This document shows, piece by piece, positions 1 through 18,494 of a stretch of 19,866 nucleotides of DNA. Location: positions 1-19,866 of the IMG/VR virus record IMGVR_UViG_2579778613_000002; one strand, given 5' to 3'. Made by a program: the position numbers and the translations under genes. This stretch comes from a virus. Taxonomy: Duplodnaviria; Heunggongvirae; Uroviricota; Caudoviricetes. The notes beneath the pieces are model-generated. The model ran no database searches, was not told where the DNA came from, and was given only the letters and a program-made list of their open reading frames with translations. How positions within the stretch are numbered: position 1 is the stretch's first letter; every line of letters begins with the position of its first letter.

Positions 1-793
<793 letters not shown>

Positions 794-866
794 GTCGTTA
801 ATTCCTATGCGTGGTTTTACGATACCGAAGCCCTGACTGTTACCGCAGTTGGGGCTTCAACTTTCT
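794..866 (+). ncRNA. sar: sar-like small antisense RNA (about 70 nt) complementary to the ant start codon and RBS region
   Basis: Plus-strand promoter-like elements: -35 TTGATA (759-764), 17-bp spacer, -10 TATACT (782-787), predicted start near 794. Hairpin at 827-858 (GAAGCCC / GGGCTTC stem extended by ACTG/CAGT, hexaloop TTACCG) followed by a U-rich run AACTTTCTGCTCT. P22 has an antisense sar RNA of similar size at the equivalent position. Confidence 0.45.
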
Positions 867-1060
867 GCTCTATCAGTTATATCTTTCCCTTCATATACTT
901 CACCTATATTGCTAATGCTGGCAGAACATCCAAGATGCTTGTATCTTATGATGTCCAACACGCAGTCACTACACAGCATCCGACCTGTTTCTTTAGAGTA
1001 AATGTATGTTTGATCAGCGTCTGATTCGCTAATGCCGCAGAAACAACATTCTTTACTCAT
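857..1060 (-). CDS. Small Cys-rich protein (67 aa) with two CxxC motifs, putative zinc ribbon; function unknown
   Basis: ORF-track ORF. Its ATG (1060-1058) overlaps the arc stop in an ATGA arrangement, indicating translational coupling. CxxC pairs at C5/C8 and C30/C33 with a further Cys at 44. A GAGGGG SD-like element lies upstream inside arc. Confidence 0.6.
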   Translation of the reverse strand: MSKECCFCGISESDADQTYIYSKETGRMLCSDCVLDIIRYKHLGCSASISNIGEVYEGKDITDRAES

Positions 1061-1197
1061 ACCGTTATCCCCTCTCTCTTCAGGCTGTCCATCACCCGTT
1101 TAATTACTTCTGCACTAAATGAGCGACACTCTTCCTTTGCTTTCTCTTCAAGGATTTTTTCTAACTTCTCTGGCATACGCAGTGTTTTTACCTTCAT
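1057..1197 (-). CDS. arc: Arc-like ribbon-helix-helix repressor (46 aa)
   Basis: Below the ORF-track size cut-off; found by hand translation from ATG 1197-1195: MKVKTLRMPEKLEKILEEKAKEECRSFSAEVIKRVMDSLKREGITV, ending TGA 1059-1057. Pattern (beta-strand RMP, two helices, ...RVMDSLKREG) resembles P22 Arc. SD GGAGGA is 4 nt upstream of the ATG. Confidence 0.7.
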   Translation of the reverse strand: MKVKTLRMPEKLEKILEEKAKEECRSFSAEVIKRVMDSLKREGITV

Positions 1198-1302
1198 TGC
1201 ATCCTCCGTTGTATGTGGTACGCATACATAGTATTTAGGTACGCATTGATAGTCAATAGATACCTACATATCCTGTGGTAAAAAATTATTCAGGATGCGC
1301 CG
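1198..1302. promoter_or_regulatory. Divergent immI-type control region: Pant-like (minus) and Pmnt-like (plus) promoters with operator-like palindromes
   Basis: Minus-strand promoter: -35 TTGACT (complement of 1251-1256), 17-bp spacer, -10 TACTAT (complement of 1228-1233). Plus-strand promoter: -35 TTGATA (1246-1251), 17-bp spacer, -10 TATCCT (1269-1274). The two -35 hexamers overlap inside the perfect palindrome ATTGA-TAG-TCAAT (1245-1257), which is nested in a larger inverted repeat TAGGTA...TACCTA (1236-1266). Direct repeat GGTACGCAT occurs at 1217-1225 and 1238-1246, 21 bp apart. Confidence 0.55.
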
Positions 1303-1554
1303 ATGTCTGATCGTAAGTACAAAAACCCTCAAGTGAATCTGAGGCTTCCTGTAGAGATAAAGGAACGTCTTATTGAACTGGCTGAGGCTAATTCTCGTTC
1401 ATTAAATGCTGAGATGGTCGCAGCACTTGAAGCATGGACCGAAAAAAACAAACACATTCAAGCACTAGATCTTGCAACTATAGCATCGCGACTGATAGAG
1501 CTTGAGCATGATGTTGAGAAGTTAAAATGTATGCATGGCAATGGTGAAAAATGA
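1303..1554 (+). CDS. mnt: Mnt-like ribbon-helix-helix repressor (83 aa)
   Basis: ORF-track ORF. N-terminus ...NLRLPVEIKERLIELAEANSRSLNAEMVAALEAW has the RHH pattern of P22 Mnt (FNFRMPMEVREKLKFRAEANGRSMNSE...). C-terminal part looks coiled-coil like Mnt. Divergent from arc; SD AGGA at 1292-1295. Confidence 0.75.
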   Translation: MSDRKYKNPQVNLRLPVEIKERLIELAEANSRSLNAEMVAALEAWTEKNKHIQALDLATIASRLIELEHDVEKLKCMHGNGEK

Positions 1555-1868
1555 AACGTATCGCTATCCTATTGCTCCTGTGTCTCTCGAGCATAGCTAA
1601 CGCAGAAACAAAATCAGACGATAGCAGTTTTGATGAAATACAAGGCCTCATGATAGCTTCTAAAATGGCTGGTATGTGTGGTGCAATCAAACAAATGGCA
1701 ATATTCCAAGAATCTACAAACATGCCAGGTGGGAATGAATTCTTACAGAGATTCCTTACTACAGAGCAAGCAAGGCTCGGGATGACTCCGCAGCAATTTC
1801 TTGAAGCATGTCAGAAATCAATCTCTATTTATACCACCTATTACAATATGAGCTCTGAGAAAAAATAG
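1551..1868 (+). CDS. Predicted secreted (periplasmic) protein with cleavable signal peptide (105 aa); function unknown
   Basis: ORF-track ORF. Its ATG overlaps the mnt stop (ATGA), indicating translational coupling. N-terminus MKRIAILLLLCLSSIANA-ETK is a typical Sec signal peptide with an AXA cleavage site. Mature part has two Cys. Confidence 0.6.
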   Translation: MKRIAILLLLCLSSIANAETKSDDSSFDEIQGLMIASKMAGMCGAIKQMAIFQESTNMPGGNEFLQRFLTTEQARLGMTPQQFLEACQKSISIYTTYYNMSSEKK

Positions 1869-1877
1869 ACTAGGATT

Positions 1878-2063
1878 TCAACGGCTTCCGCGTCCCTGAG
1901 TAATTCTGTTGCGGATTTGCTTCTTGCGGTGGTTTAAGCTGGATAGCTTGGCTTCTGCTTCTGATATTTGCGCATCTAGATCTTTAAGCTCAAGATCTGA
2001 AAGTCGCTGGTCAAGCAGGGTTTGATTCAACTCAATGTTGTTCAAACGTTCTTCTATGGTCAT
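1878..2063 (-). CDS. Small charged coiled-coil protein (61 aa); function unknown
   Basis: ORF-track ORF. Strong SD AAGGAG is 5-6 nt upstream of the ATG (ATAAGGAGTAATC-ATG). Sequence is heptad-like and highly charged. Lies immediately downstream of the terminator at 2077-2105. Confidence 0.55.
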   Translation of the reverse strand: MTIEERLNNIELNQTLLDQRLSDLELKDLDAQISEAEAKLSSLNHRKKQIRNRITQGRGSR

Positions 2064-2076
2064 GATTACTCCTTAT

Positions 2077-2105
2077 AAAAAACCCACCTGACGGTGGGTT
2101 TCATT
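2077..2105 (-). terminator. Rho-independent terminator (bidirectional hairpin) downstream of the lipoprotein gene
   Basis: Plus strand reads AAAAAA-CCCACC-TGAC-GGTGGG-TTTCATTTC (stem 2083-2088 / 2093-2098). On the minus strand the hairpin is followed by UUUUUUAU; on the plus strand by UUUCAUUUCUU. Confidence 0.65.
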
Positions 2106-2107
2106 TC

Positions 2108-2539
2108 TTAATCTTGCTTTGTGGACGGTATAAGGGATGCGTTTGCCTCTTTTGGCTTCAAGGTATACATCCCACCATTAAATGGATCAACAGCAAGCCA
2201 ACCAATTAACCCACCAAACACAAGGTTTCCACCAATATACCAACCATTAGCATTGGCTTTGATTGGCAGGGTAACTGGTTCATACCCATCCTTCTCCATA
2301 GTGATCTGGTAGTTCTTTTTGCCAAAATAGCTACCATCTGACTTGGCGAGCGTTACACCTTGTGGGGTCCTACCTTGCGCAACAATCACACCTGACTCAT
2401 CTTTTACCTTAAAGCTCGCGCCAGAAGGATTGCTGTTCACTTGCACAAGTTGCGTTTCATCACCAACAATAGTTGCGCACCCAGATAACATCATAGCGCC
2501 AGCAACGACGCCAATAATCCTCTTCATATCAATTTCCAT
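2108..2539 (-). CDS. Predicted lipoprotein (PEGA-like beta region plus glycine-zipper hydrophobic segment); candidate moron/superinfection-exclusion protein
   Basis: ORF-track ORF. Signal peptide with lipobox: MKRIIGVVAGAMMLSG-C. The true start is probably the ATG at 2527 (MKRIIG...). Middle region (VQVNSNPSGASFKVKDESG...GRTPQGV...KDGYEPV) fits the PEGA-type pattern; C-terminal GWYIGGNLVFGGLIGWLAV is a glycine-zipper-like hydrophobic stretch. Own terminator downstream. Confidence 0.65.
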   Translation of the reverse strand: MEIDMKRIIGVVAGAMMLSGCATIVGDETQLVQVNSNPSGASFKVKDESGVIVAQGRTPQGVTLAKSDGSYFGKKNYQITMEKDGYEPVTLPIKANANGWYIGGNLVFGGLIGWLAVDPFNGGMYTLKPKEANASLIPSTKQD

Positions 2540-2644
2540 ATTTAAAAAACCGGAAACATCCTAATGACAAACCATTCAAATGTGAAGTAGGCAAAAGATG
2601 TTTACTTTTTTCATGGTATCCTGCTCAAAACTAAGGAGGTTGGT

Positions 2645-2833
2645 GTGAAGAAAAAATTTGTAAACGTTGCAAAGTGCGCAATTTTTATATTTTTTATGAC
2701 CTTTTACGGATTTAGTGCCGGAGAAGGTTTCGATCGTGATGCCAATGCATTCAGTTTCTTTTGTCTGTCTATAGTGGTCATAATTGTATGGGTGGAATTA
2801 AAGCAAACATTGTTTCATGTGCTAAGGAAATAA
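2645..2833 (+). CDS. Small hydrophobic membrane protein (62 aa, two predicted TM helices); function unknown
   Basis: ORF-track ORF with GTG start preceded by a strong SD AAGGAGGT (2633-2640). Two hydrophobic stretches (AIFIFFMTFYGF and FFCLSIVVIIVWV). Visibly AT-rich. Convergent with gp16; no convincing promoter found. Confidence 0.5.
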   Translation: MKKKFVNVAKCAIFIFFMTFYGFSAGEGFDRDANAFSFFCLSIVVIIVWVELKQTLFHVLRK

Positions 2834-2850
2834 CCATCCATGGCATTTAG

Positions 2851-4692
2851 TCACTGCTGTGTTGCCTCAGTGGCAAGCAGCGGTCTGATGGCATTTGCAG
2901 CGTTACTTAATGCTCTTTCATAGGCTGGCGTTCCTGCTTTGGTGTTTGCCAGACGTAAGAGCGCATTCCTTGCTGCTTTGGACTCATACAAGCGCATCAT
3001 TGCACCGAAACCAGCCTCAAGCCCCATTGATACGCCAAGAGTCGCAGTTGCGCCAATCGTCCTTATCCTGTTGGCTTGCGATTGCCCCGTCTGAGTTACT
3101 ACATTTGCGGTGTCTGACCTTGCTGTTTGCTGTAGAACTTCATGAAGAGCATCAAGCTCTTTCATGTGCTTTCCAGAAAAAATAGTGTTGTAAATTTCAC
3201 CACCTGACTGAGATTTCAGCTTATTAACTTCAGTGATGAACTTGGCTGGAGAGTCACCGGCCTTTTCCGCTATTTTGCTGACGTAAGCTGCACGCATAGC
3301 ATCTTTCCCTTTATCATCCAGTGCGCTCCAGATTCGTTTCACGTCAGATGGTTTTCTGCTTAATACAACGGTATTTATAAGTTCAGGACTGGCTTCACTG
3401 CTTGCCTTGTTGAGCTTGTTGGCAATGTTTTTATTAAGCACCTTATTATAAACGTTTGCATAATCGGAATTTGCTTTAAGGTATTTTGCTGCGTCTGATG
3501 CACCGAGGTTTTTAGCAACTGCGTTACGAAGGTCTTTTGACATTGCATTCTCTACCATATTGGTAGCTGCTTTTGCCTGGTTGGGGAAGACCATAGCATC
3601 TCCCTGAACATTAGATCTAAATGCTGTTCTGTGCTGACGCAAGAGATCAAACGTAACATCCAAATCAGTTGCAGGGTTTGCTAATTCTTCACGTAGGTTA
3701 CGCAAGGATGTAAGCAGGCTTTGATTGGCAGACGTCCCAAGCCGTTCCTGTCTTGCGATCGCTGTATTCAGAGCATTCATGGTATTTGTGGTATCAACTG
3801 CGGCATTACCCATTTTATTGGTGACGTCATTGATAACAGCGCCAGCGGCATCCTTCCGCCCCCTTAACGTGGTGGTAAGAGATTTCACCACATCATCAGG
3901 GTTGTACTCACCAAAACGGTCAAAATAATTGCTTACCAGCTTACTACGCGTTGCATATTGCTCAGCTCGCTTTGAGCCTGTCCCGAGCAAAGCCCCCTCA
4001 GCATCCTGAGTAAGTCCGCGAGTGAAAGCATTTTTCGGCGGGATAACATCAGATGTCATTGGTGTCACGCCCATCGATTCTGATGTGGCAATTTTCTTCG
4101 CCACTTCTGGCGCAATATCACCTTTTATAGCCGTTATTCCACGCCCTATTCCCTTTGCTGCTGCGGAAAGAACACCCTGAGCGGCAAGGTTAACTCCGGC
4201 ATTTTTAGCTGCATTTTGTGCGAAATCGCCTTTCTGATTTGCGGCCTCTGCCAGTGATCCAATAGCCATGCTTCCTGCCGTTCCAACTCCTGGAACTAAA
4301 TACCCGCCAATTGTTTCTCCAGCTTGCGCATAAGGGTCTGTCGGTCGCTCGACAGGGCGATAAACATCATCCAAAACCTTGGGGCCGCCAAGCCCCTGGC
4401 TGATTGCATTAATCAGACTTGCGCCACCCTGCAATACGTCAAATGGTATGTTTACCAGACCACGACCAGCCTGTTCTGCAATTTGCCCTGCACTTTTACC
4501 ACCTGTGAGCCAATCACCAGCTTGTTGCATCAATGATGGTTCTTCCCGTGTTGGTGCATTATTGGCCTGATTAACTGTTTGTTGCTGAACAGCCTGACCA
4601 GCAAAATACTCATCAATGGCGGTGCCAATATCTTCGGTGCTCGTACCATCAGGAAAGGTAAATGTCTTACCGTTTGCAGTTACTTTCATCAT
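2851..4692 (-). CDS. gp16: Ejection (DNA transfer) protein, P22 gp16 homolog (613 aa)
   Basis: ORF-track ORF. Size and position (last gene of the late operon, after gp20) match P22 gene 16. Gly/Ala/Gln-rich composition typical of ejection proteins. Start overlaps the gp20 stop. Confidence 0.8.
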
Positions 4693-6104
4693 TCCACCGT
4701 AAATTGAATGCCTGATTTTGAGGTATATGACCCAACCTGATTCCGTGGTTCTCCTGAAGGTGTCGAATCTTGTGCTGGCGCTGCGTCAGTATTCATTGAC
4801 ATATACCGCTTAACGGCACTCCCCAATGATTCACCTTTTTTAACATCCAACCCCAATATCTGACCGCCATTACGCGATTGTCCTGGATTGCCATTCGCGC
4901 TCATCCACTCGGCTTTAAACTCATTAAACTGCGCGTTTCGTCGCTCAAGGTTTGCCATCGCATCAAGCCATCTTGCGACCGTCTCAGGGTTATCCATGTC
5001 AGTTGGTGCACCCTGCCGAACGATCTCAACGTCTTTATCCGTTGCGGGGCCGGGAGGTAGGAATTTAAGAACCTGACTGTTAACAAGGGCATTTTGGCGG
5101 ATGCGCAAATCACGCAATGTTGTATCGCTTCCGGTAAGTTTTGCGAACATGTTCTGTGCGTTACCGAACAAACCTGTCGTTGGTTTTTCTGCTCTGAACT
5201 GTTGAGCAAGCGCACTCATGGAATTGGCTGAGTTTGATGATGCTGTAGCATTGTTTACAGCCGTCTCGATGCCTTTTTCCATGTTTACTGACAGCTTAGG
5301 TGCTTCGCTAATCAACTGCTGAGCCTTTTCCTGTGCTTGCTGCATCTTAAACCCGAACTCTTGCTGATCCAGAGCCAAGCGTTGTGCTGCGATATTGTGT
5401 CCAGTCATTGCTGACTGATAGGAAAGGTTTTGCCCTCTCGCCTGAAGTGCTTCTCCAGCCTGATTGCTGCGGATTGTCTCTGCAAGTTTGCCTCGGTCAA
5501 TTTCACGACCAGCCATCTTGTCCTGAACAGCAAACGCCTTTTCTGGTCCAAGCGCACCGAGAGACATAGTAGTCAACATGTGTGATAGCTGCTCTGGATT
5601 ATGGATACCTGTCTGAATCATCCAGTCAGCATTCGCCCCCACGCGATTTAACCTGTCCTTGTTGTCAGTAATGAATTTACTGTAGGCTTCCGGTCCCTGA
5701 GAAAGAGCGACGTTAGCCCTTATGGCTAAATCGCCCATATCGTTGCGTTGCTGATCATTAAGACCGGAAAACGCCTGTTGTGCCTGTGCAACAAACGCTG
5801 GATTTTCCTGGGCAAACTTAAATAGTCCCGATGGATCACCAGAAGCCCATGCATCAGCGTGAACCTTATTGAACGCACTAATCGCTTTCTGTTGCTGTTC
5901 CTGATTGTAAATATCAGCAACTCCAGCCAGACCACGTAACGCGGTCAGACCAACGTTATTTGCACCTGAGCGAGCCAGTTCATTGTTTTCGCGGATCAGA
6001 CCAAGCGTTGCGTTAATGTCGCTTGCCTTTGGCGCATTCTCATTTTGCGTACCGATGCCAGCCAGAAAACCACCAGAATTAATACCCTGTTGCCACGTAG
6101 CCAT
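4689..6104 (-). CDS. gp20: Ejection protein, P22 gp20 homolog (471 aa)
   Basis: ORF-track ORF. Length and position between gp7 and gp16 match P22 gene 20. Confidence 0.8.
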
Positions 6105-6114
6105 TGATTACTCC

Positions 6115-6807
6115 TTAAAACAACGAGCCAAGCAGACCAAGACCGCCGCCGATCGCAGCCCCCCACGGAGTTGATGAACCAATTAATTTCGCAAGTCCGG
6201 CCCCAGCAATAGCACCAGACGCACCTCCGCCAATAGCAGATTGCATTGCTGATGGTCTGTTGGCATTTGCCGCTGCAAGAGCCGCACTTTGCTGCGAAAT
6301 CTGACTCATGTTGTTGGCATATGTCTGCCCGGCGTTTGCCTGACCTTGCAGTGCGCCAAGACCAATATTTGCCAGATTCTGGTAGTTGTTCATCTGACCA
6401 GATAGCCATTGCTGACCAAGCGTTGGTGCGATTGTTGCTAACTGATTACTGGTTGCGGTGGAACCCAATCCACCTGTTGCTTCCGCTGCCGCCAGACTCT
6501 GATAGCGAGCCTGACCAGCAAGATCTTTGTACTGCTGAGAGTTGTAATACTGGTTAAGCGCCTGACCTTGCCCCTCCAGAGACGATAAGTTTTCGAGGCT
6601 TCCGACATACTTATCAGCCAGAGGAGTAAACGGCTTCAGGTTGTTCATGATGGTGTTGAACTGCTGATTTTGCAGGTCTGCTGCATACTTCTGAGCTTCT
6701 GCGGCATACTTTGCGCTTTTATCAGAACTGCCACCTTTCCCACCCTTTTCAGGGCAATAAGGTTCCTCGCCGCGCAGTTTTCTGCCCAGCTTAAATGCAT
6801 ATAACAT
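6115..6807 (-). CDS. gp7: Ejection protein, P22 gp7 homolog (230 aa)
   Basis: ORF-track ORF. N-terminus MLYAFKLGRKLRGEEPYCPEKGGKGGSSDK... and the Gly-rich C-terminal tail match P22 gp7 as I recall it (229 aa). Confidence 0.8.
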   Translation of the reverse strand: MLYAFKLGRKLRGEEPYCPEKGGKGGSSDKSAKYAAEAQKYAADLQNQQFNTIMNNLKPFTPLADKYVGSLENLSSLEGQGQALNQYYNSQQYKDLAGQARYQSLAAAEATGGLGSTATSNQLATIAPTLGQQWLSGQMNNYQNLANIGLGALQGQANAGQTYANNMSQISQQSAALAAANANRPSAMQSAIGGGASGAIAGAGLAKLIGSSTPWGAAIGGGLGLLGSLF

Positions 6808-6809
6808 GG

Positions 6810-7265
6810 CTATCTCCCGTGATTCAGGAAGTCGATTAGTTCTTCGCGTGTGGCGCTGTAAAAAGTCACGTCATCCACGCCTTTAAAGTATTTCTTGATG
6901 GTTCCTACACGCTTAAGGCCAATCATTGCGCAGTACATCTGCCCGTGGCGGAATTTGCGTGCAGCGAACGATGTGACGCACTGAACGGTGGTGTTAGTCA
7001 GAATGTATCGCCAGAACGCCATCCCGATTTCCTTGCTGAATCCGCGAATCTCTGGCAGGTACATGGCGTGGCAATCAAAGGTCAAAGGCTGAATCTCCTG
7101 ATAGTAAACAATTCCGCCGAACTGCCCGTGCACGTTCACCTCAAAGTAACGGCAATCAGGTTTGTAGTCGTATCCATCACCGTTGTTGCTCCCGGCGATA
7201 ATGTCAGGGTGATTTCCGACTGCTTCGATCAGGTCAATGTTTCGCGTTGGTTTGAATGTAATCAT
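6810..7265 (-). CDS. Gene-14-position protein (151 aa); putative head/ejection-protein assembly factor
   Basis: ORF-track ORF located between the tail-needle gene and gp7, where P22 has gene 14. Assigned by synteny and size only; I do not recall the sequence well enough to confirm homology. Confidence 0.5.
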   Translation of the reverse strand: MITFKPTRNIDLIEAVGNHPDIIAGSNNGDGYDYKPDCRYFEVNVHGQFGGIVYYQEIQPLTFDCHAMYLPEIRGFSKEIGMAFWRYILTNTTVQCVTSFAARKFRHGQMYCAMIGLKRVGTIKKYFKGVDDVTFYSATREELIDFLNHGR

Positions 7266-7966
7266 CAGTCAATCAGCCCATGTAATCTAAGTGCCGTTTC
7301 AAGCGCCAGAATACGCTGCCGCGCCTGCTGCAAACCTGTAGCGAGAGATGCGACTTCGGATTGTGTGTACGTAGTGCCGACAGTGTATGACTGGTTAGCG
7401 TTGAATGAGCCAAGAAGTGGCGTACCTGTGGCTGCTGTCCACCCTGTCTGACGAGCACCAATAACCTTGGTGCCGCCGACCGAATAGGATGTTGTTACAT
7501 TGAGGGGAGATGCCAGCGATTGTGTTGCAGTGGCTGTTTTCGATACATAGTCGTCCTGTAATGCAGAAATGTTGCTCTCAGCAGTCGTAACCCGGCCATC
7601 AAGAGCGCTGACGTCAGCCTGTAAAGTGACTATTTCTCCTTCAGCCGTGGTTAGTCTGACATCCAGCTCTGCAATTGCCGCAGTATTCGCAGCAATACGG
7701 ATTTCATGGTCATCTACTTCAATGCGGAGCTGACGAATTCTTTCTTCGTGATCGACCAGAATCACATCCTGCTCATCGTTCCTGACTTGTGCGTCATAAG
7801 CGCCCTGTCCGGCCTCGTTGGCCTTGTTCGCCACGTTACCAACATCAGTACCCTGTGCGATAACGTAAAGCAGATATGACTGCGAGAAGATATTGCGTGG
7901 AAGGATTGATGTATCGAGCTGCGTCGCCTGAACAATAACAGGTGTATTGAGATTCGAATCAGCCAT
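7265..7966 (-). CDS. gp26: Tail needle protein, P22 gp26 homolog (233 aa)
   Basis: ORF-track ORF. N-terminus [43 protein letters not shown] and the central coiled-coil region (RVTTAEGEI...[17 protein letters not shown]) match P22 gp26; same length. Confidence 0.85.
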
Positions 7967-9384
7967 TACTCAATCCTTATCTGGCAGCCAGACAGAGTGA
8001 CAGGTGACTTCGTGATAACACGCAATTTGAAGCCGACATTTTTCCTGATGCGCCCAACTCGCTTCCACAAAACGCGCTTGTCGTAAACGAACGGTTCATT
8101 CTGCTCAATCATCTGCTCACGACCGTAATTGATGCCGTCAGTGGTTGCAGAGAGGAACAGGCGGTCAGCGTACTGAGCGACACCAGTCGATGATTCAACT
8201 TCCAGATCAAAACATCTGGCGTTCTCAGCTTTGAAGAGTGGTGTAAACAACAGGTGTTCTTGCTGTAGTCCATACTGGCTGCTGATATCGAACTGCAATT
8301 TGCCGGTCACGGACTCCAGCTTATCGCCGCACGTTATCTGATTGCCTTCGTAAATAAAGTCGATAGCGCGGTACACATCGTCATACAGTCCAGTTTTCAG
8401 CGCACACCATTGCGGACCATTGGTACTTGAAGATGCGTCGTACACGAGTACATGGCGCGGAAGATGGATAATCAGCAACTCATGCGCATCAAACCGCAGC
8501 GATTCCATCACACCATCAGCCAGTTCATCAGCAGTGTAGGAGCGGAGAATTTTCTCAATGCTCGCGCTGGCGATTGGTGATACCTGACCGGAGCCGATGA
8601 TGTATACAGACGGCGCACCTGTTGCCGGATTGCTGATGAACGCATAAGAATCAGCAAACGGCGTTTTGCAGTAAGTTCCGGCAATACCTTTCTGCACCAT
8701 CAATGATGGCTGTGCGACATACAAAGCGGCACCAGCGGTGGTTGCCCCCGTCAGGGAGAAATATTCAATCGTCGATGAACCAAAGCAGACGATGAAGTCT
8801 CGCCATGTTCCGATGCCGATGATGCCGTCAGGCTGAGACTCTGCACGATATTGTGCGCTGTATCGGTCAGGGTGCGATTCGTCTTCAAGGTCAGTGATAA
8901 ACCATGAATCAGTGCCGTCTTTTGACCACGCATAACGCCCACGCAAGCGCGTAATGTCACGAACCGAACCTAACTCATACTGAGTGAATCCGCTATCTGC
9001 AGGCCAGTTTGAGACGGTTTTAACCGTGCCATCATAGCGATACTCTACCAGTTGACCATTAACGCCTACAGCCTGAGATGTCCGACCATGCGCCATTGAT
9101 ACACGACCACTTCCGGCAACATCACCGACTTCGCTTTCGCCCTTATACAGCTTGCCCCCACACACGCGATATACAGCACTCTGCGCCATGTTGTACTCGA
9201 CGCCGCGCGATATACCGTTCACATCAGAACGTTTGGCAATGCCCGGGAATGAGCGAAGATATCCGCTGCTGTTAAGGATTTCTTTGGGTGTAGCCAGCAT
9301 ATTCACTGGCAGATAGTCGATGTAGTCGGCGTTTCGGAAATCTTTGCCGACACCTTTCATAAGCGGAAGTTGCTGAATCGGCAT
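7966..9384 (-). CDS. gp10: Tail hub / head completion protein, P22 gp10 homolog (472 aa)
   Basis: ORF-track ORF. Length identical to P22 gp10 and position between gp4 and gp26. Confidence 0.8.
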
Positions 9385-9885
9385 TTATTCGCCCCCGTTA
9401 TCGCAAGGTTCCTTCCGGTGGAAGTAATTCCAACCATTCCACTTCGCCAACTGGTTACCGCTACCAACAGGCATACGGTTTGGATAACCGGACTTACATT
9501 TAGCGGCTTTTGCTCTGTCCATTGCAGACAGTTTGACGAGTCGCTCTTTCCCGTATCTGGCAGTGGTTATAAGTTTTGCTGGCGCTTCCAGCGCATAATC
9601 TGGAGCAATGCGGCAGGCAAGGTTGAAAATGACGGCATTGATAGCGTTATTTGATAAACCGTGCTCATCGCCCGGTTCTGGAGCGACATCTGCATCAGCG
9701 AAAATGTAGCCAACGTTGATACCAGGTGACACATCACCGCCAAGCCATTCAGCCATCATCATTTCAAGGTCGTTGACGCCGTCTTCCATAGACTGCGGTT
9801 CTACATCGGTTAACGTGGCATTTGATGCCACACCGAGCTTACGTAATGCCGCAAGAACTAAATCACCCTTCGTTGTCAGGTTCAT
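9385..9885 (-). CDS. gp4: Tail adaptor / head completion protein, P22 gp4 homolog (166 aa)
   Basis: The ORF-track ORF (9385-9966) has a spurious N-terminal extension. Homology to P22 gp4 ([33 protein letters not shown]...) begins at the internal Met, [33 protein letters not shown], giving 166 aa as in P22. Confidence 0.8.
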
Positions 9886-10105
9886 CTGCTGCCGCCTTAG
9901 GTTTTCGACCAGGCTTTTTACGCTGTTTTTCTTCTTGCTCTGGCTCTGGCTCTGACTCTGCAACATCCTTCAGAAGATCATCAGGATGTGCAAACCAGCC
10001 AGCATCCAGATATTCCTGAAGCTCTTCGGCTTTCACGATTTCAAAGTCGTATCCAACGCCTTTCCACTTCTTCATGTTGCCATGGCGAAAGATCATGTGT
10101 GTCAT
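9863..10105 (-). CDS. Small protein with acidic Pro/Glu-rich and basic C-terminal tail (about 80 aa); function unknown
   Basis: ORF-track ORF 9863-10153. Preferred start is the ATG at 10105 ([16 protein letters not shown]...) because SD GGAGA lies 5 nt upstream; alternative starts at 10096 or 10075. Contains an in-frame (GCTCTG)x3 repeat at 9937-9960 encoding EPEPEP. Overlaps the gp4 start by about 23 nt. Confidence 0.45.
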
Positions 10106-10118
10106 GCTTGTCTCCAGA

Positions 10119-10141
10119 TAAAAAAGGGAGCCGAAGCTCCC
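10119..10141 (-). terminator. Rho-independent terminator/attenuator immediately after the coat gene
   Basis: Minus strand reads GGGAGC-UUCG-GCUCCC followed by UUUUUUAU (stem 10126-10131 / 10136-10141). It lies 9 nt downstream of the coat stop codon, inside the late operon. Confidence 0.7.
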
Positions 10142-10149
10142 TCTGGTTA

Positions 10150-11445
10150 TCACGCGGTCTGGTTAGGCAGACCAACACCAATTGCCTCTGGTCGTACAGC
10201 ACATGCTGAATACCACACAGCAATACGGCACTTACCAGACAGAGTGTTGATATCACCCTGCGTTGCGAAGATGCCGTTAACACCAATACCAGGAATGCTG
10301 AAGGAAGACGTTTTCATGCCAGCAAACAGTTCATGGGTTACCGGGATCGGCTGAGACAGCAGACGGATTGAGTCATCAGCCCAGAACACGTTAGCGGTGG
10401 TTGTTGCCACGTTCAGAACGTTTACCGGAGTGGTATCAGCAAGAGAGGTGTTTACGTTAGCGTAAGCCTTCTCTTCTTTTGTCAGTGACGCGTCATCCAG
10501 TGCAATCGGCTTCGGCGTGATTTCGATGTGAGTACCATCGATCACACGGGTGATTGAGAAAGTCGCATCATCAGTCAGCACGTTCTTCGCCATCTGAGAC
10601 AGGAATTTCACACCAGTGAAGCTGATTTTGTCGCCGCGCTTAAATCCGGTGGTGGAGGATACGGTCACCGTTGCAACACGGTTGTCGACGTTCTCTTTGT
10701 TACCATCGGTATCAAGGGTGTATGCCTGCGGCTTAAACTTCTGCGCTCCAGACACAGTTACACCAGTAGCGGTTGACTTGGTAACTGCCGGAAGTTTCGG
10801 TGAGCGAAGAATTTCATCAAAGCCAGCAATCTGACGCTGAATAGTACCGTTGCGATACGCTTCTTCAGGAACGCGCCCAAAGATGTCACCATCTACCAGG
10901 TTGCGGCCTGCTTTGCGGTAATCGTCAGGGTTCAGGAAGTAACTGATGCCCATATCGCGGTTTAGCTCACGGGAGAACATCAGGCGCTCTGCATCAGACA
11001 CAAAATCCCAGCCAGACAGGCCAGTAGATGGACCAATTGCGCGGGTATCGTGAACAACAAGTGAGCCCATTTCGGTTGCCTGTTTGGCAATCGCTGACTC
11101 AATGTTATTCGCCAGTTTTTTGGCGGATGCCTGGATGCGGCGACGGTAAGAACGCTCATCACGCAGGTCATCTGCACGAAGCTCGAAGAAATCGTTATCC
11201 GGATCGCCCATGTTGCACTTCACGGAGAGTTCCAGAATCCCGGTTGCGTTGCCAGTTAAATCCCAGCCAGTCTGGGTTGGCGCTTCCTGCTCAACAGGCA
11301 TCCACACGGTGTTGCTTGAACGCTGCATGGATTCTGCCGGAGGGGTGTATTTTGTCACTTTGGACGCCATTGGCGTCAGGTTCTGGACGGTTTCGATGAT
11401 TTCATCGATAGCGTAAGTAACTAACTGCCCTTCTTTGAGAGTCAT
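10150..11445 (-). CDS. gp5: Major coat protein, P22 gp5 homolog (431 aa)
   Basis: ORF-track ORF. Sequence (...[22 protein letters not shown]...[10 protein letters not shown]...CRIAVWY...[14 protein letters not shown]) closely matches P22 coat protein (430 aa) as recalled; downstream of scaffold. Confidence 0.9.
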
Positions 11446-11512
11446 ATATTGAATACCTTACTTTCTTTATGTGCTATACTATTGTTATATCAACATATAG
11501 CGCATTAGGGTT

Positions 11513-12034
11513 ATGAGCATGGAACTGAATGAATACTTCGAATACCGCGATGGCTCTTTGGTTTGGAAAGCCAGAAGCTCTGAATTTTTCAACAACAAAA
11601 AGAATCGCAACTATCACAACGTTTGGAATGCAAAACACGCTGGGAAAGTTGCTGGTCTTTTAGAAAGCAATGGATATATCCGCATAAGAATTAACGGCAT
11701 TAAGTGGCTAGCACACCGCATCGTATGGGTGATGTTTAACGGAGATATTCCAGAAGGCATGGAAATTGACCATATAAATGGGATTCGCCACGACAACAGA
11801 ATTGAAAATCTTCGTCTTGTGAAAAAATCAGCAAACCAAAGGAATAGAATCAAACTATCTAAAAATAACTCCAGCGGAATATCTGGAGTTTACTTTTGCA
11901 ACACGCGGAAAAGATGGATCGCTCATAAGCGACTGCTTAATGCAAGAGTGCAAAAAGTATGTTCTTCATTCGAAGAGGCGAAAGAAGTAATCAGAAAGTT
12001 TGACGAGGAAAACAACATCACGATATCGAAATAA
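11513..12034 (+). CDS. HNH homing-type endonuclease (NUMOD4-like N-terminus, HNH motif, AP2-like DNA-binding domain), inserted between scaffold and coat genes
   Basis: ORF-track ORF, antisense to the late operon. HNH motif EIDHINGIRHDNRIENLRLV; N-terminal YRDGSLVWK and downstream GISGVYF...KRWIAHK fit the NUMOD4/HNH_3/AP2 architecture of phage homing endonucleases. Start is more likely the second ATG at 11519, which has AGGG 8 nt upstream. Extended -10 TGcTATACT at 11472-11480. Its TAA stop (12032-12034) directly abuts the scaffold stop codon (12035-12037). Visibly AT-rich. Confidence 0.8.
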   Translation: MSMELNEYFEYRDGSLVWKARSSEFFNNKKNRNYHNVWNAKHAGKVAGLLESNGYIRIRINGIKWLAHRIVWVMFNGDIPEGMEIDHINGIRHDNRIENLRLVKKSANQRNRIKLSKNNSSGISGVYFCNTRKRWIAHKRLLNARVQKVCSSFEEAKEVIRKFDEENNITISK

Positions 12035-12946
12035 TTATCGAATTCCTTTATTCAGTTGCGCCTTAAGCTTGCGGTATGTCTCTACATCCCCTTTGTTTGC
12101 TGCCGCTTCCATCTGCTTTTCAATCGCAGATATATTTGCAGCAACAGCGTGTCCCTGAATGGGTTCATCAGGTAACGGGGCTTCTGAAACAGGCTTGGCT
12201 CGAGGCTTGAGAGTTAAACGTTCTGACAGTCGAGTGAGTTCAATCAGCGCGGATTGCCCGTCCATCGCCAGCAACTGGCGTGTTTTCTCAGGATTAGCAC
12301 CAAGGTGATACATGAGAGCGGCGGATTTCTCCGGGAAGAGGCGCATGATGTCGGCACCGACTGCTGGCGGCACCAGTTGCATGAATGCATCCTCTTTCTC
12401 CTGATAGTCAGGGATATTGAGCTTTTCCGCTGCGTCGTAGTGCTTACGGGCTGCCTCGACGTATTGCGCTGATTGCTGGGTGAACTCCTGAGTTTTTCGA
12501 CCCTGCTCGGCGACAGCCTGGCTTCGTGCATCCATAGCCTTGATCTGCCATTCACTGTTTGCCTGCTGGAAGGCAGCCAGTGCGCGGCTCTGGTCATAGT
12601 CGTACTTAGCCAGTGCGTCTTCGGAAAGATAATCGTTAGGGTCTGGTTGTTTTGGTAACTCAGGGCTCACCCGCAGGTGCTCCGGCAACTCTCCACGCTT
12701 AACTGCTTCCATCTGCTGCTCAAGCTCACGCTGGCGTTTGCGTTCGATGCGGCGACGGGCAAATTCAGCATTAGTTGCCGGGTCTTGTTTTGGTTTCTCA
12801 TCGTCTTTCAGGACAATCTCGAAGCCTTCTTCCTGACCTGCGTTGTCGTTGGCATTATCGACAACTAAGCCATCAGCAGATGCCGCTGCATGATTGCCGG
12901 GCAGGGTTAATTCTTCAGAAGCCTGAATGTCGGTGGTTTGGTCCAT
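12035..12946 (-). CDS. gp8: Scaffolding protein, P22 gp8 homolog (303 aa)
   Basis: ORF-track ORF. Same length as P22 gp8 and near-identical stretches (e.g. [12 protein letters not shown]..., ...[49 protein letters not shown]...). Confidence 0.85.
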
Positions 12947-12959
12947 GATTAACTCTCTC

Positions 12960-15128
12960 TTATTGAGGTGTCTCGGCTACTCCGCCGGAGGGGATTTGAA
13001 CTTGACGCATAAGATTCGCGAAATCCATGCGTTGTGAATGAGTCTGGTCTGCATCTTTAAGAAGCAGCTCAGCGTTAGCACGAGCATCTTTGCTGCGCTG
13101 TTGCTGGAATTGACCTACGAGCTTGAGGTACTCACGCAGTTCTGCCTGCTTGTCGAGGTCCATATTGTTGAAGATTTCTGCAATCTTCGCGGCGTTGAGT
13201 TGGTTTTGAGCTTCAACCTTGGCGGCTTCAACCTGAATCTGCGCCTGTTGGTTCTCTGCCTTGAGCAATTCAGCCTGACCTTGCAGAAGGATACCCTGCG
13301 CCTGAATTTGCTCTGCTGATGGCTGCTGCGGCTGCTGTTGAGCCTGCTGTACCATCTCCATCTCTTCAGGTGTTTCTGGTTTCTTCAGCCCCATCATCAC
13401 CAGTTGCTTGTTCGCGTACTCTCGCATCATCTCGACGCCTTTACCGTCAAGCAGCGTGAAGTATTGCAGCATCAGCATCTGGAACTCTGGAGTACCTTGC
13501 GGAACCTTTGTTAGCAACTCCTGAATCTCTGCGCGATTCTGTTCCTTCATACTCTGGAAGGATGGTCCAACGTCTGTATAGCACTCATAGCGACCGCGAA
13601 TGTCGTTGAGTGTGACCACATTGCCGGACTGGTAATCGACAACTTGCGCATAGAGTTGAACGTCTTTCTCGCTTCCATCTTCAAGTGTCAGCGTTACATG
13701 ACGAGGAACGTCATAAATATCGTTGACCATTGAGGCATAAATCTCGCCATCACGTCGCATTGCGGTAGCCAGGTTATCCTGAAACACGTATGTCTCAAGA
13801 TCTGCCCGCATGTTCAGTTGATTGACGGTATCGAAAGCGACCTGAGAGTTTGCCGCCTGCGCATCCACGCCAAGACTAGCCACCTCTTTCACTGCGTTGG
13901 TGGCAGCCTCAAGCATGTAAGCGTTGGCTTGCGGCACTTCAGGGTTTTCCATGTAGGAGATTGGACCAATCGGCAGGTCGTTACCGTTTTCATCGGTCCT
14001 GTTCTGCAGATAGTACGGATAGTCATCATTTCCACCGTACATGTATTCGTAGCCTTCGATTTGCTCAGGGAAGAAGGTCGGTTTCTTCTTCGGTGAACGA
14101 GCAACAATATCGGCGTTGAACGACATGATCATGTTACGAAGGCGCTGACCGTCTTTCGTCAGCCTTACCACTCCTTCGTAGCACTCCTTGTCACCAGCGA
14201 ATGACCATTCGCCATACACTGGAACGATTGGAATATGCTCTCCGGCTATCTTCTCGCGGTCTTTCAGTATCTGCGTGCAGGTGATGATCGACTTATACAC
14301 ACGCCGACGCTTCACCTTGCGCTCTGCTACCTTAATGAATCCACGATTAGCCAGGTCGTCGATGACGTCTTTGATATCCTGCTGGTAATAGCTGACCGGC
14401 TCACCTGTCAGCGGGTCGCGGTAGATGAAGACCTTCTCCTTCTTCTCTTCTACCTCGTAATACTCAGCGACGTAGACGACATCATTCGACACCCACGGGA
14501 ATAGCCATGTATCGTTAGGATTCTGGAAAGATGGCAAGGTATCCGGGTCAATACCGTAATCCTCTGCGAACTCTTTCCAGCCATTGCGCGACAAGGCGTT
14601 AATCACCGTGCAATGCTTAGCGTCGCTCTTATCCATCTGCTTGCTGTTGGCGTCCCATATAACGTGTGAGCAAGCTTCATGGATTGGCAGGCGTCGGATT
14701 ACCTGATTGTTGCTTGTTGGGTCGTTGTCTTCGTACTGCGTGACCAGACGCCATGCACCAACGCCTGACTCTATCTGCTCACGAACGCCAACGTTAACGG
14801 CAATTTTTGCCGTATTATGGCGCATATCAGTACGATACATTCCCATCAACACATCGGCAGCATCAGGATTAGCACCGTCTTTTGGTCGGAAGAGAACGTC
14901 GATAGGGTTCCGGCGCATCTCTGCGACCAGTTTCCTGACCACCGGGCGAACAACATCGAATTGTCCGCGATATTGCAGGGTGGTGTAGTTTGATAGCCAG
15001 TCATCCCATTGGCTTATGCGACTGAAGTATAAATCGTTAGAAGCTTCTGTTCTCGCCTCGTCGGAAGACATCCAATCAACATCGAATGCTTGCAGTATCT
15101 TATTTAATCGCTCTGCGTTGTCAGTCAT
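12960..15128 (-). CDS. gp1: Portal protein, P22 gp1 homolog (722 aa)
   Basis: ORF-track ORF. Strong similarity to P22 portal as recalled (e.g. [56 protein letters not shown], and the C-terminal Gln-rich barrel region). Confidence 0.9.
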
Positions 15129-15147
15129 AACTTTACCGTGATAAAAT
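15118..15147 (+). promoter_or_regulatory. Sigma70-type promoter for the antisense HNH endonuclease gene, overlapping the portal start
   Basis: -35 TTGTCA (15118-15123), 18-bp spacer, extended -10 TGaTAAAAT (15139-15147). Followed by SD AGGAG (15166-15170) 8 nt before the GTG start at 15179. Confidence 0.5.
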
Positions 15148-15178
15148 CAATGGGACAACTTCAACAGGAGATTCTATT

Positions 15179-15679
15179 GTGAGCCATCCATCTATAGAAG
15201 ATATAAGGAAAAATTTCACATACGATGCTGAAACCGGAATTTTGTACGCGGCTAATCGCACAAGGAGGACAGACCTTAACGGCAAGCCAGTTGGGTGCCA
15301 GCATGGAAACGGATACCTTGATGTAAGGCTTGGTAAAAAACTGTACTACGTGCACAGAATTTGTTTTGCGCACTACTATGGTTACTGGCCCGAAGCAGTA
15401 GATCACATAAACGGAAACCGTGCTGATAACCGCATCTGTAATCTTAGAGATGCCAATAAGCAGTTGAACGGACTAAACCGTGGCATGGATTGCGACAATT
15501 CAACTGGATACAAAGGAGTTTCCTATCGCAAGGACACAAATAACTACATGTGGCAATTTGTGGTAGAAGGCAAGAAATACACAAAAAGCGGATTCGCTAC
15601 AGCATTAGATGCATACAAGCATAAGGTAGCATTTATTAACGCTCTGAATTCCGCTGCCTCTGAATTTCTCAAGCCGTAA
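15179..15679 (+). CDS. HNH homing-type endonuclease (paralog of the 11513-12034 gene), inserted between TerL and portal genes
   Basis: ORF-track ORF with GTG start, antisense to the late operon. HNH motif AVDHINGNRADNRICNLR; same domain order as the other HNH gene (NUMOD4-like FTYDAETGILY, HNH, AP2-like GYKGVSYRK...MWQF). Ends 9 nt from the TerL stop codon. AT-rich. Confidence 0.8.
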   Translation: MSHPSIEDIRKNFTYDAETGILYAANRTRRTDLNGKPVGCQHGNGYLDVRLGKKLYYVHRICFAHYYGYWPEAVDHINGNRADNRICNLRDANKQLNGLNRGMDCDNSTGYKGVSYRKDTNNYMWQFVVEGKKYTKSGFATALDAYKHKVAFINALNSAASEFLKP

Positions 15680-15688
15680 CAACAGTAT

Positions 15689-17191
15689 CTATCTTGTTGA
15701 CCGTGCGATGGGCCTGATTGGGGCTGGTATCTTTTTCTCTTTTGGTTTTTTGATGTCGCGCATCATTTTTGCGAAGCGGCGCATCATGTATGCATAGCGA
15801 ACGGCGGATAGCACGTCGTCGTTAAGCTTGACGATTTTCCCGTTTTCATCGCGGTGATAGAGGCGGAACTCCTCAAAGAATGGCTCACAGGTGTTGAATA
15901 CTTTGAAGCGACCATCAAGCATCATGTCGCGCAATTCAGTGATTCCAGGCTCCACCGCGTTACCGCCATCAGGCCATGTCGCATGCTCCTGCAACATCAT
16001 AAAACCAGCATCTGCATACTGCCCTTTGAGCTGCTCACCGCCGCCCTTCTCGTGCTGGTTTCCGTCATGAGGCCATGCTGTTGGCACTTTATGCGCCCAT
16101 GATTTAACAGCTCCCCATGCCTGAACGGCTGTTTTTTCTTTCGCCTTCCACACGCGTGAAACGTAGATTGTGTCTGCGTCCTTATCCCACCAAAGCTGAA
16201 CCTGCGCCTGTGGGTGATCCCATCCGAAATCCATCCCGCCAATTACGTAGAAGTGATCAGGACACTCGAACGGCTGACACTTAATCGTCTCTTCCGGTAT
16301 CTGGAATATTCGCCCGCTACCCATCGTAGGAATACCGCGAGCACGCGCCTCTCTCTCATGCTCAGGATAGGATGCGATGATTTGCTCTTTCTGCTCGTCG
16401 GTGTAGTGCTCAGCGTCATAGATGGTCATGTTGACCACTTTCTGAGACTTGCTGGGATTCTTCAGGAACTTGGTAACAACGTCAGACATCCCCATCAGCG
16501 GGGTAAACGTCAGAATTGAGAATTGCCCGTATTTGTTGGTACGGGTAAGACCTTCGCCATAAATGCTGTATGGTGGCTCTTCGTCAAACCACACGCCGTG
16601 GATTGTGTCACCCTGCCAGCGAGCACGGCCTTGCGAGTATGGCTTGAAGTAGCAGATTGAAATGCCATCTTCAACGCCATCAGCCGTGTGATGCTTAACC
16701 AGAAGATGATCAACAAGGTTCGGAAAGAAAGGAGACTTCTTCCAGCTAATGATGTCTTCTTTAGGTATGGAACCGTAGCCTGGCTCATCATTCTCTTCGA
16801 TACGACCACACAGGATGCGTTGAGTCGTTTTGGTTACAGTCTCGTTTGTCTCGCCGCCAATCCAGAAGACAACAGGCTCATAGAAACGCTTACCTTTCCA
16901 CTCCCCACCATATTTACCATCAGCCGGATAGCCTTTTGTTCCCGGATAACGCCCGGTAAGGTGAAACGCGACTTCAGCAGCACCAGTAAATGACTTACCA
17001 AGCTGGTTACCAGCCATAAAACAGCGCTCTGGATAGTCATGCCCGGCGTCGATGAACTCACGCTGTTTGCTGTATGGCGTAAATTCATATAGCAGGTGTG
17101 TGTTCCGGTAGTTCTCTTCTTCTTCGAGTAGCTCGAGCAATTCTATTTGCTCTTCGTCGCTCAGGTTATCAAGAATCGCGTCCAGTTCCAC
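15689..17191 (-). CDS. gp2: Terminase large subunit, P22 gp2 homolog (500 aa)
   Basis: ORF-track ORF. N-terminus [70 protein letters not shown]... matches P22 TerL as recalled, with a Walker A-like GNQLGKS. Start overlaps the TerS 3' end. Confidence 0.9.
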
Positions 17192-17663
17192 GGTTGAATA
17201 GCTCCTTGATACGAGAGCGTCGCTTATCGCGATCTCCCTTATCAGGTGTCACGTCTTCAACTTGCGACTGCTCTTTGAGGCCCAAATCACGGGCGATAAT
17301 GTTAGCGTTGAGAAGGTCAGCGGCTGCGCCAGAGAATTTCTGGTCGTAGATGACCTGCTCTGCTCGCGTAACGACTTCAGATAAATCTTCTCGCAGGCGA
17401 TATGTGCGCCATGTTTCAAGAGTCACATCAATGAACAGAGTGAGGCCGGTAATGGTCATCGCTCGCATCTTGGCGATAGGCTCTTGTATCACTTCACCCT
17501 GATACGAGAACGCCTTCATCTCCCATAGCGGGTTAGCTTCTACCCACTCGAAGTATTCACAACAAGCAGCCCACAGCGCCTCAGGCGATTCGAATTTAGG
17601 ATTTCGCCCATGACTACTGCGGGCCTCCCAAAATCGGTTGCCCTTTGGTGCTGCCATATTCAT
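17169..17663 (-). CDS. gp3: Terminase small subunit, P22 gp3 homolog (162-164 aa)
   Basis: ORF-track ORF. Sequence (M)[51 protein letters not shown]... matches P22 gp3 as recalled. The start may be the ATG at 17657 rather than 17663. Confidence 0.85.
17369..17390 (-). other. pac: pac site (headful packaging initiation sequence) within the TerS gene
   Basis: Minus strand reads GAAGATTTATCTGAAGTCGTTA, encoding EDLSEVV of TerS. This matches the 22-bp P22 pac sequence as I recall it, at the expected place inside gene 3. Confidence 0.5.
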
Positions 17664-17692
17664 CTCACTTATTTGTTATTTCAGGTTGAGCA

Positions 17693-17935: not shown

Positions 17936-17956
17936 TGTTGGCTCCGTTTATCCGTT

Positions 17957-17982
17957 AAAAGGGATATCAGTTAAGTTATCCC
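17957..17982 (-). terminator. Weak terminator- or attenuator-like hairpin between the gp49/gp66-like gene and the 80-aa ORF
   Basis: Inverted repeat GGGATA-N10-TATCCC (17961-17982), followed on the minus strand by UUUUAACGG. A second inverted repeat AAGCCATT-N20-AATGGCTT lies at 17994-18029. Confidence 0.3.
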
Positions 17983-18038
17983 GTGTAGGGTATAAGCCAT
18001 TATCAAAGCCACTCAGTAAGGAATGGCTTTTGTAATAA

Positions 18039-18477: not shown

Positions 18478-18494
18478 AATTTAATAATTAATTA

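Follow-up and report, generated by a model that had tools for sequence, protein, structure and literature searches.

A short gene beside the DNA-ejection gene 16 of a P22-like Escherichia coli prophage appears to stand in for the phage-exclusion gene sieA. The DNA analysed here (the window) is a stretch of 19,866 nucleotides, positions 1 to 19,866 of IMG/VR record IMGVR_UViG_2579778613_000002, which is part of such a prophage and carries its late genes on the minus strand. It holds a 62-codon open reading frame (ORF), here called ORF62, which genome comparison indicates is a real, selected protein-coding gene that is found in place of sieA and shares its slot, leader and boundary. We propose that its product is a prophage-expressed inner-membrane hairpin that may keep superinfecting P22-like phages from delivering their DNA, as a functional analogue of SieA without homology to it, and we give this proposal about an even chance because its support comes from position and architecture. 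By this analogy, ORF62 would join SieA types A, B and C (Leavitt et al. 2024, PMC10883804) as a candidate for a fourth type of exclusion protein at the sieA position, and not as a member of a known family.

Conservation points to a selected gene for a two-helix membrane protein

The first-pass annotation of this DNA had picked out ORF62 as a GTG-initiated, AT-rich mini-protein gene with two hydrophobic helices and an unusually strong ribosome-binding site, convergent with gp16, and our analysis bears out each of these features. The Shine–Dalgarno element AAGGAGGT is an 8-mer that occurs nowhere else on either strand of the 19.9-kb window; GC content is 34.4% in ORF62 and 34.3% in its upstream spacer, compared with 47.9% across the window and 47.3% in gene 16; and ORF62 ends 17 bp from gene 16. 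The two hydropathy segments lie at ~residues 11–25 and ~35–50 and are flanked by an N-terminal KKK and K10, an acidic loop between the segments (GEGFDRDANA) and a basic C terminus, a charge pattern that fits a hairpin with both ends in the cytoplasm (N-in/C-in) by the positive-inside rule. An AlphaFold2 model built on a 7-sequence alignment places helices at residues 3–24 and 29–61 with moderate confidence (predicted local distance difference test score, pLDDT, of 71). A lipoprotein reading was considered and rejected, as the VAKC of ORF62 is not a lipobox.

ORF62 is the sole ORF of the 311-bp interval between a 143-amino-acid (aa) lipoprotein gene and gene 16, and its length is marginally unusual: ORFs of at least 62 aa arise in 5.6% of shuffles of that interval. 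Length alone is not compelling, so the case for a gene rests on comparison with other genomes. ORF62 aligns with the whole of PHROG 21338 (E 5.3e-45; residues 1–62 on profile positions 1–62 of 62) and is found full-length at ≥95% identity in 89 of 5,426 complete E. coli genomes, ~1,250 of which carry a gp7-like gene. Homologues in Salmonella and Serratia fonticola are exactly 62 aa long (77–81% identity), and profile and word-indexed searches returned more distant members of 61–66 aa, down to 32% identity, one of them from Pectobacterium and none longer. The profile search, which covered 1.8 billion representatives, yielded 12 proteins that either stand alone at 61–66 aa or bear spurious N-terminal extensions from upstream start calls; the stand-alone proteins led us to discard a reading of ORF62 as part of some longer protein. 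The family thus recovered spans Escherichia, Salmonella, Serratia, Pectobacterium and unassigned metagenomic contigs, a breadth that derives from IMG/VR, the protein database and complete E. coli genomes, a scan of species-representative genomes having given one locus (Serratia).

Constraint acts at the protein level throughout this range. Pairwise ratios of nonsynonymous to synonymous substitution rates (dN/dS) are 0.14–0.42 among E. coli, Salmonella and Serratia alleles, the hydrophobic pattern is maintained down to 32% identity, residues K10, F14, M18, G22 and W49 are invariant across the family, and S37, F38, I43, I46, I47, E51 and K53 are nearly so. Serratia, distant members and one E. 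coli-type allele have ATG where the GTG start of ORF62 aligns, and the Shine–Dalgarno element is conserved, reading AAGGAGG or AAGGGGG in almost every E. coli or Salmonella context and AGAGG or GGAG in distant members. ORF62 is intact in all 50 related loci collected.

The family is already catalogued, as PHROG 21338 and as a RefSeq hypothetical protein, without an assigned function, and usually goes unannotated. PGAP labels it (WP_000726292.1, hypothetical protein) in a few E. coli genomes; most of the 89 carrier genomes, and all carrier phage records found (JEP4, phiv205-1 and UPF_BP1; three phages, four records), leave it out, and we found no literature on it. That annotators skip ORF62, that shuffled intervals sometimes reach its length and that close relatives such as WP4-S18-ESBL-08 lack it are what one would expect of a chance ORF or a decaying remnant in an AT-rich spacer. 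The PHROG family, conserved length, dN/dS, conserved start codon and Shine–Dalgarno element and four-genus spread argue against this, and effectively exclude it on comparative grounds.

ORF62 as an apparent alternative to sieA beside gene 16

Across 50 P22-like prophage loci (labelled L001 onwards where a label is needed), ORF62 adjoins the 3′ end of gene 16 in convergent orientation in every case, with a gap of 17–20 bp except for one of 45 bp and one 4-bp overlap, and its upstream neighbour is of at least 14 types. A family member is the lone gene between gene 16 and the tailspike gene in several distant phages (L018, L020 and L021), and the family was found in P22-like prophage contexts only, never as a chromosomal gene. 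In the close relative WP4-S18-ESBL-08, which is without ORF62, a lipoprotein gene is followed by a short spacer with the boundary motif described below and then by gene 16. This relative and the invariant abutment on gene 16 together indicate that ORF62 is an accessory cassette with a fixed docking position. Its absence from WP4-S18-ESBL-08 between adjacent genes and its deviant composition (GC 34% versus 47–48%) are what marks a moron, an add-on gene carried by a phage, and ORF62 would be one; as for a promoter and terminator of its own, a scan finds neither a canonical sigma-70 promoter nor a terminator, and a sieA-type leader is present.

This leader is 96% identical to the DNA upstream of P22 sieA, GTG start included, and the similarity stops exactly at the common start codon, beyond which the coding sequences are unrelated. 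Its core block TCATGGTATCCTGCTCAAAACTAAGGAGGTTGGTGTG (2611–2647) is preserved across many upstream contexts, as is the block TCAT(C)TGGTATCCTGCnCAAAACTAAGGAGGTTGGTGTG. One and the same leader (…TGGTATCCTGCnCAAAACTAAGGAG…) stands before four unrelated cargos, namely sieA type A (P22), sieA type B (HS1), a 161-aa lipoprotein gene and ORF62. In E. coli HS, sieA type B lies behind the same helix-turn-helix (HTH)/S24 gene and leader that precede ORF62 in other prophages, and in Salmonella prophages the leader and the 161-aa lipoprotein gene are followed by ORF62 as a second gene. The leader looks like a portable expression module for prophage-expressed genes.

On the other side, the motif CCATCC[A/T/G]TGG(C) adjoins the gene 16 stop codon in ORF62 loci of all lineages and in all P22-like loci seen. 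It takes the form CCATCCATGGC within the 17-bp spacer between the ORF62 and gene 16 stops of the window, GCCGTCCTTGGC after P22 sieA and ACATCCATGAC after HS1 sieA, and is also present in L016, which is without ORF62. Its role may be that of a recombination boundary or of a weak RNA element; terminator scanning and RNA folding found a convincing terminator on neither strand.

SieA and ORF62 therefore share much of their setting. Both lie between gene 16 and the tailspike gene 9 of P22-like prophages and converge on gene 16, a location characteristic of the SieA family; they have in common the leader, the ribosome-binding site and the position of the start codon, and their right-hand boundary motifs are similar. 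Both are inner-membrane proteins, by prediction in the case of ORF62. The two were mutually exclusive in the loci examined: neither SieA nor its motif FxRYPxEAxxFNK occurs within 6 kb in any ORF62 locus. They differ in the protein itself, SieA being 164–212 aa with 3–5 helices and carrying that motif in the cytoplasm, whereas ORF62 has 62 aa and two hydrophobic helices, is without the motif and has no sequence or profile similarity to SieA.

Expression signals

The first-pass annotation had found no convincing promoter for ORF62, which proved half right: our plus-strand scan upstream of ORF62 detected no canonical sigma-70 site, but a conserved block from ~−36 to the start codon also precedes functional sieA genes. 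Leavitt et al. (PMC10883804) obtained full exclusion by sieA when the cloned segment extended 85 bp (P22) or 106 bp (HS1) upstream and 22 bp downstream of the gene, so the promoter is probably close to the conserved leader block. A sigma-54 reading of this region was rejected on account of its incorrect spacing. Plus-strand operons headed by the maintenance repressor gene mnt end with ORF62 in Serratia and some E. coli prophages, which argues for expression in the lysogen, and we infer that ORF62 is expressed there.

A scan found no terminator between ORF62 and gene 16, so the transcript should run into gene 16 in antisense. RNA folding of the spacer and leader is no better than that of shuffled sequences, and the leader is unstructured. 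A weak terminator-like hairpin with a T-rich tail lies 319 nt into gene 16 in antisense, a relative position shared by the annotated 3′ end of STnc6030, a transcript of the P22-like prophage BTP1 discussed below; its assignment as the 3′ end of the ORF62 transcript is suggestive, the number of terminator-like sites in the region being not above shuffle expectation.

A proposed role in blocking DNA entry

In the proposed scheme, the sieA-type leader would drive transcription of ORF62 in the lysogen, counter to the late genes, and the consensus ribosome-binding site would ensure efficient translation. The 62-residue product is predicted to be a helical hairpin of the inner membrane, its two termini cytoplasmic and its short acidic loop periplasmic, and may stop incoming P22-like phages after adsorption. 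Its target would be the trans-envelope DNA conduit formed by gp16 and gp20, the ejection proteins, or else a membrane factor of the host on which this conduit depends. Escape from SieA maps to the C-terminal parts of gp16 (G532W, P546S) and gp20 (PMC10883804). The product of gene 16 is the class of protein that SieA targets, and residues 536 and 550 of the gene 16 product of the window align with the P22 escape positions G532 and P546.

Other exclusion proteins offer partial parallels. HK97 gp15 is a small, prophage-expressed inner-membrane exclusion protein that blocks DNA entry (Cumby et al. 2012, PMC3594210, which also mentions small envelope proteins). Like the proposed ORF62 product, it is moron-encoded among virion genes and blocks genome entry without masking the receptor, and its specificity is set by the DNA-delivery proteins of the incoming phage; it differs in being unrelated in sequence (YebO family), in coming from a siphovirus and in targeting the tail tube and tape measure, not ejection proteins. 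The Imm protein of T4, an inner-membrane protein of ~83 aa with hydrophobic helices, blocks DNA injection by superinfecting phage; unlike ORF62, it belongs to a lytic myovirus and is expressed early in infection, not from a prophage.

An exclusion factor was one of several roles listed in the first-pass annotation, together with toxin, holin-like protein and abortive-infection effector, and it is the one that gains from the sieA slot, leader, ribosome-binding site and start codon; the toxin and holin readings are poorly supported. It is improbable, in our judgement, that ORF62 encodes a membrane-damaging toxin or an effector of abortive infection, resembling a type I toxin or a holin, that kills or depolarizes the cell upon phage attack or loss of control. 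Its small size, strong hydrophobicity, two helices and charged C terminus are those of class II holins and some type I toxins, the N-in/C-in two-helix topology is that of class II holins, and one weak structural neighbour is annotated as a holin (E 3.7, not significant). Holins, however, differ in their place in the lysis cassette, strand and timing, whereas ORF62 lies in the immI/sieA interval on the strand opposite the late genes, a long way from where annotated lysis genes lie in related P22-like genomes. Type I toxins have an antisense or antitoxin partner; ORF62 combines a consensus Shine–Dalgarno element and a short unstructured leader, strong constitutive translation signals, with no antisense promoter, antisense RNA or antitoxin neighbour conserved across the at least 14 upstream contexts, a partner that the first-pass annotation had proposed looking for. 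The only Rfam match in the left 5 kb of the window is the sar RNA. ORF62 is also intact in every genome seen, including the 89 E. coli carriers, and the mnt-led operons of Serratia and some E. coli prophages imply constitutive expression in the lysogen.

A possible parallel in the BTP1 transcript STnc6030

The P22-like prophage BTP1 produces STnc6030, originally described as a non-coding antisense RNA: cloned alone, it fully excludes incoming BTP1 without reducing the titre on prophage induction, and escape arises through four single-nucleotide polymorphisms (SNPs), all non-synonymous in gp16 (Owen et al. 2020, PMC7067206). The authors deemed it non-coding because it holds no ORF exceeding 60 aa (PMC7067206), and the published model is antisense pairing (PMC7067206, PMC12197685). 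We mapped the transcript to BTP1 13703–14488 (−) from the published coordinates and the escape SNPs to gp16 residues 583–595; in an alignment of gp16 C termini, P546 of P22 corresponds to BTP1 residue 589, in the middle of the SNP cluster.

The cloned fragment holds a 23-aa hydrophobic ORF, MERDLLNFVFLIFGLVVGKLLFA, with the Shine–Dalgarno sequence GGAGGG and a stop codon that overlaps that of gene 16 by 12 nt. The ORF is kept, always at 23 aa, in phages L, S9-5 and Klebsiella phiKp_30 at ~75–79% DNA identity, and is unannotated in every phage record inspected. Comparing the BTP1 and phage L alleles by hand, we found 7 of 11 changed codons to be synonymous and the 4 replacements to be largely conservative. 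Given the entry block, the gp16 escape mutations at the SieA position and the normal induction, a SieA-like membrane protein would be expected in preference to antisense-driven loss of late mRNA; judging by where the escape mutations fall, the 23-aa peptide may be the BTP1 effector, a reinterpretation and not the authors' conclusion. We found no literature proposing a peptide product for STnc6030.

The STnc6030 and ORF62 units are alike in running plus-sense through the gene 16–tailspike interval, against the late genes and into the 3′ end of gene 16 in antisense, as the ORF62 transcript is predicted to do. STnc6030 is highly expressed in lysogens and excludes incoming phage with induction unaffected; its 23-aa ORF would encode a single-helix peptide unrelated to ORF62, and the phenotype is demonstrated for BTP1, whereas exclusion by ORF62 is suggested by position. 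The distant ORF62 member of L018 has the upstream DNA of BTP1, with only the cassette different, and BTP1 intergenic and cassette DNA used as a query matched no ORF62-bearing phage. With the BTP1 parallel, an exclusion role becomes more likely a priori for small membrane proteins in this slot. We put forward tentatively, and with less than even confidence, a broader proposal: that an exclusion slot just downstream of gene 16 has been filled repeatedly by unrelated minimal membrane proteins that jam the gp16/gp20 conduit, namely SieA (164–212 aa), the ORF62 family (61–66 aa, two helices) and the single-helix 23-aa peptide, STnc6030 being the mRNA of the last.

The published pairing model for STnc6030 bears on ORF62 directly, as the active product might instead be RNA, a plus-strand transcript antisense to the 3′ end of gene 16 that acts against incoming or late phage mRNA and makes the ORF secondary. 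The geometry is that of STnc6030: there is no terminator before gene 16 and the first terminator-like site comes 319 nt into it. We nevertheless consider an RNA product very improbable. The protein-level constraint (dN/dS <0.5, conserved length and a hydrophobic pattern held down to 32% identity) argues against it, as does the occurrence of the same ORF62 allele beside unrelated gene 16 3′ ends (for example in L036), an arrangement that would be incompatible with antisense pairing. For P22 sieA, 22 bp of DNA past the gene suffices, and an RNA antisense to late mRNA should impair induction, which STnc6030 does not.

Weighing the exclusion reading

Several results weigh against ORF62 as an exclusion factor. 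The functional argument for the family consists of position and analogy, and the peptide reading of STnc6030 is our reinterpretation. Scans against Pfam, NCBIfam and PADLOC gave no matches, and a Foldseek search of the AlphaFold model against viral structures was uninformative, returning generic helical hairpins and nothing below E 0.9. In hhalign, the family profile aligned with P22 SieA at a probability of 0.7% and with HS1 SieA (type B) at 0.2%; with both below 1%, ORF62 is not a truncated or diverged sieA, a possibility that we therefore rejected. Near-invariant ORF62 alleles adjoin very different gene 16 types (605–743 aa); we looked for co-variation of allele with gene 16 type and found none, so there is no such signal pointing to gp16 as the partner. 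In some prophages ORF62 follows unrelated secreted or lipoprotein genes (the 161-aa lipoprotein, a Rap1a-like protein), and the slot therefore holds several kinds of cargo, not exclusion genes alone. As to expression, beyond the lack of a canonical sigma-70 site, the −35 half of the PsieA promoter annotated in P22 is replaced by other DNA in the window; TTTCAT (2609–2614) and TGgTATCCT (2614–2622) are guesses at promoter elements, and the latter, an extended −10 candidate, is weakened by the HS1 variant CGGTGTTCT.

Some of these observations would suit a host-directed function, in which ORF62 is a lysogenic-conversion membrane protein acting on a transporter, a sensor kinase, envelope stress or susceptibility to the type VI secretion system (T6SS) or colicins, and rides in a moron hot-spot between gene 16 and the tailspike gene. 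The interval gathers diverse cargo, including lipoproteins, a secreted 105-aa protein, a Rap1a-like protein, HicAB and genes resembling ClpP or S24 repressors; the alleles of ORF62 show no co-variation with gp16 type; and small bacterial membrane proteins often regulate larger membrane proteins. Yet ORF62, unlike the other cargo, stays fixed against gene 16 over 32–100% identity and is sometimes the lone gene of the interval, it replaces sieA exactly, from leader to boundary, and its family is confined to P22-like prophages. We regard a host-directed role as unlikely, though still a substantial possibility, and prefer the reading of ORF62 as an exclusion protein at the strength given at the outset.

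Genomic setting

The features of the window and the corresponding positions in related loci are collected in Table 1. The 613-aa ejection, or DNA-transfer, protein is identified as the gene 16 homologue because its gene follows those of the gp7 and gp20 homologues and because its N terminus is shared, almost identically, with the injection protein of BTP1. The first-pass annotation placed gene 16 at the end of the late operon, which is inaccurate, because in P22-like phages the tailspike gene lies past the immI region. An immI-type region lies to the left of the gene 16/ORF62 interval, and the left end of the window falls within ant. An accessory gene cluster (1303–2539) stands beside ORF62, and the 67-aa Cys-rich ORF inserted between arc and ant is missing in the closest relative examined.

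Table 1 Coordinates of ORF62, its flanking elements and neighbouring genes in the window, and of corresponding features in related loci
Feature	Position	Strand	Remarks
ORF62, two-helix membrane protein gene	2645–2833	+	GTG start, TAA stop; PHROG 21338; identical or near-identical to WP_000726292.1
Shine–Dalgarno element	2633–2640	+	4 nt before GTG
sieA-type leader	2598–2647	+	
sieA-type leader, L001	1501–1550		
sieA-type leader, L005	3430–3485		
sieA-type leader, L056	26101–26140	−	
Boundary motif	2834–2844		
Boundary motif, L016	~4893–4902		
Boundary motif, L001	~2046–2057		
Boundary motif, L056	~25447–25457		
Terminator-like hairpin, T-rich tail	3144–3172	+	Weak; candidate 3′ end of ORF62 transcript
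Gene 16 homologue	2851–4692	−	613 aa
gp20 homologue	4689–6104	−	Late-gene strand; PF16928
gp7 homologue	6115–6807	−	Late-gene strand; PF25688
sar antisense RNA	795–862	+	Rfam RF00262, 85.7 bits
67-aa Cys-rich ORF	857–1060	−	PHROG 7150
Arc-like gene	1057–1197	−	
Mnt-like gene	1303–1554	+	
105-aa protein with signal peptide	1551–1868	+	PHROG 19844; overlaps mnt-like gene by ATGA
61-aa coiled-coil ORF	1878–2063	−	PHROG 7586
143-aa lipoprotein gene	2108–2539	−	PHROG 6823; weak PEGA-domain match
HTH + S24 gene upstream of slot	L012, L024–L028, L045, L056 26166–26807		Also L014, L015, L051
23-aa micro-ORF, BTP1 (L054, LT714109.2)	14011–14082	−	
23-aa micro-ORF, phage L (L055)	909–980		
23-aa micro-ORF, S9-5 (L058)	609–680		
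23-aa micro-ORF, Klebsiella phiKp_30 (L057)	609–680		

Three further arrangements were seen around the slot. In several P22-like prophages a gene for a 213-aa (or 286-aa) protein with HTH and peptidase S24 (LexA/CI-like) domains lies directly upstream of the sieA/ORF62 slot, a second repressor-like gene distant from the main immunity region. In Serratia fonticola prophages (L008–L011 and L022), a Rap1a-like protein with a signal peptide (PF18602, a family that we take to consist of T6SS immunity proteins) is encoded ~350 bp ahead of the ORF62 homologue, with mnt on its far side, and the three genes seemingly form one plus-strand operon. In L019 (4741–5195), a metagenomic P22-like prophage, a 77-aa two-helix membrane ORF lies upstream of an ORF62-family member; the boundary motif TAGCCATCCATGGCT stands between the two and there is a 4-bp overlap of the family member with the gene 16 stop, so that two small membrane cassettes appear to be stacked in the slot.

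Implications

Only 22 of 66 sequenced P22-like phages, about a third, carry sieA (PMC10883804). Should ORF62 prove to exclude phages, it would solve the problem of exclusion in a fourth way, without homology to the others, and standard annotation would be overlooking prophage defence genes. If the broader proposal holds, the 23-aa peptide of BTP1 would be among the smallest phage-defence proteins known, and STnc6030 offers a concrete test case: whether a textbook phage antisense exclusion RNA is in fact a peptide-coding mRNA. A 62-residue hairpin would also be a tractable probe of how gp16 and gp20 cross the inner membrane, a poorly understood step.

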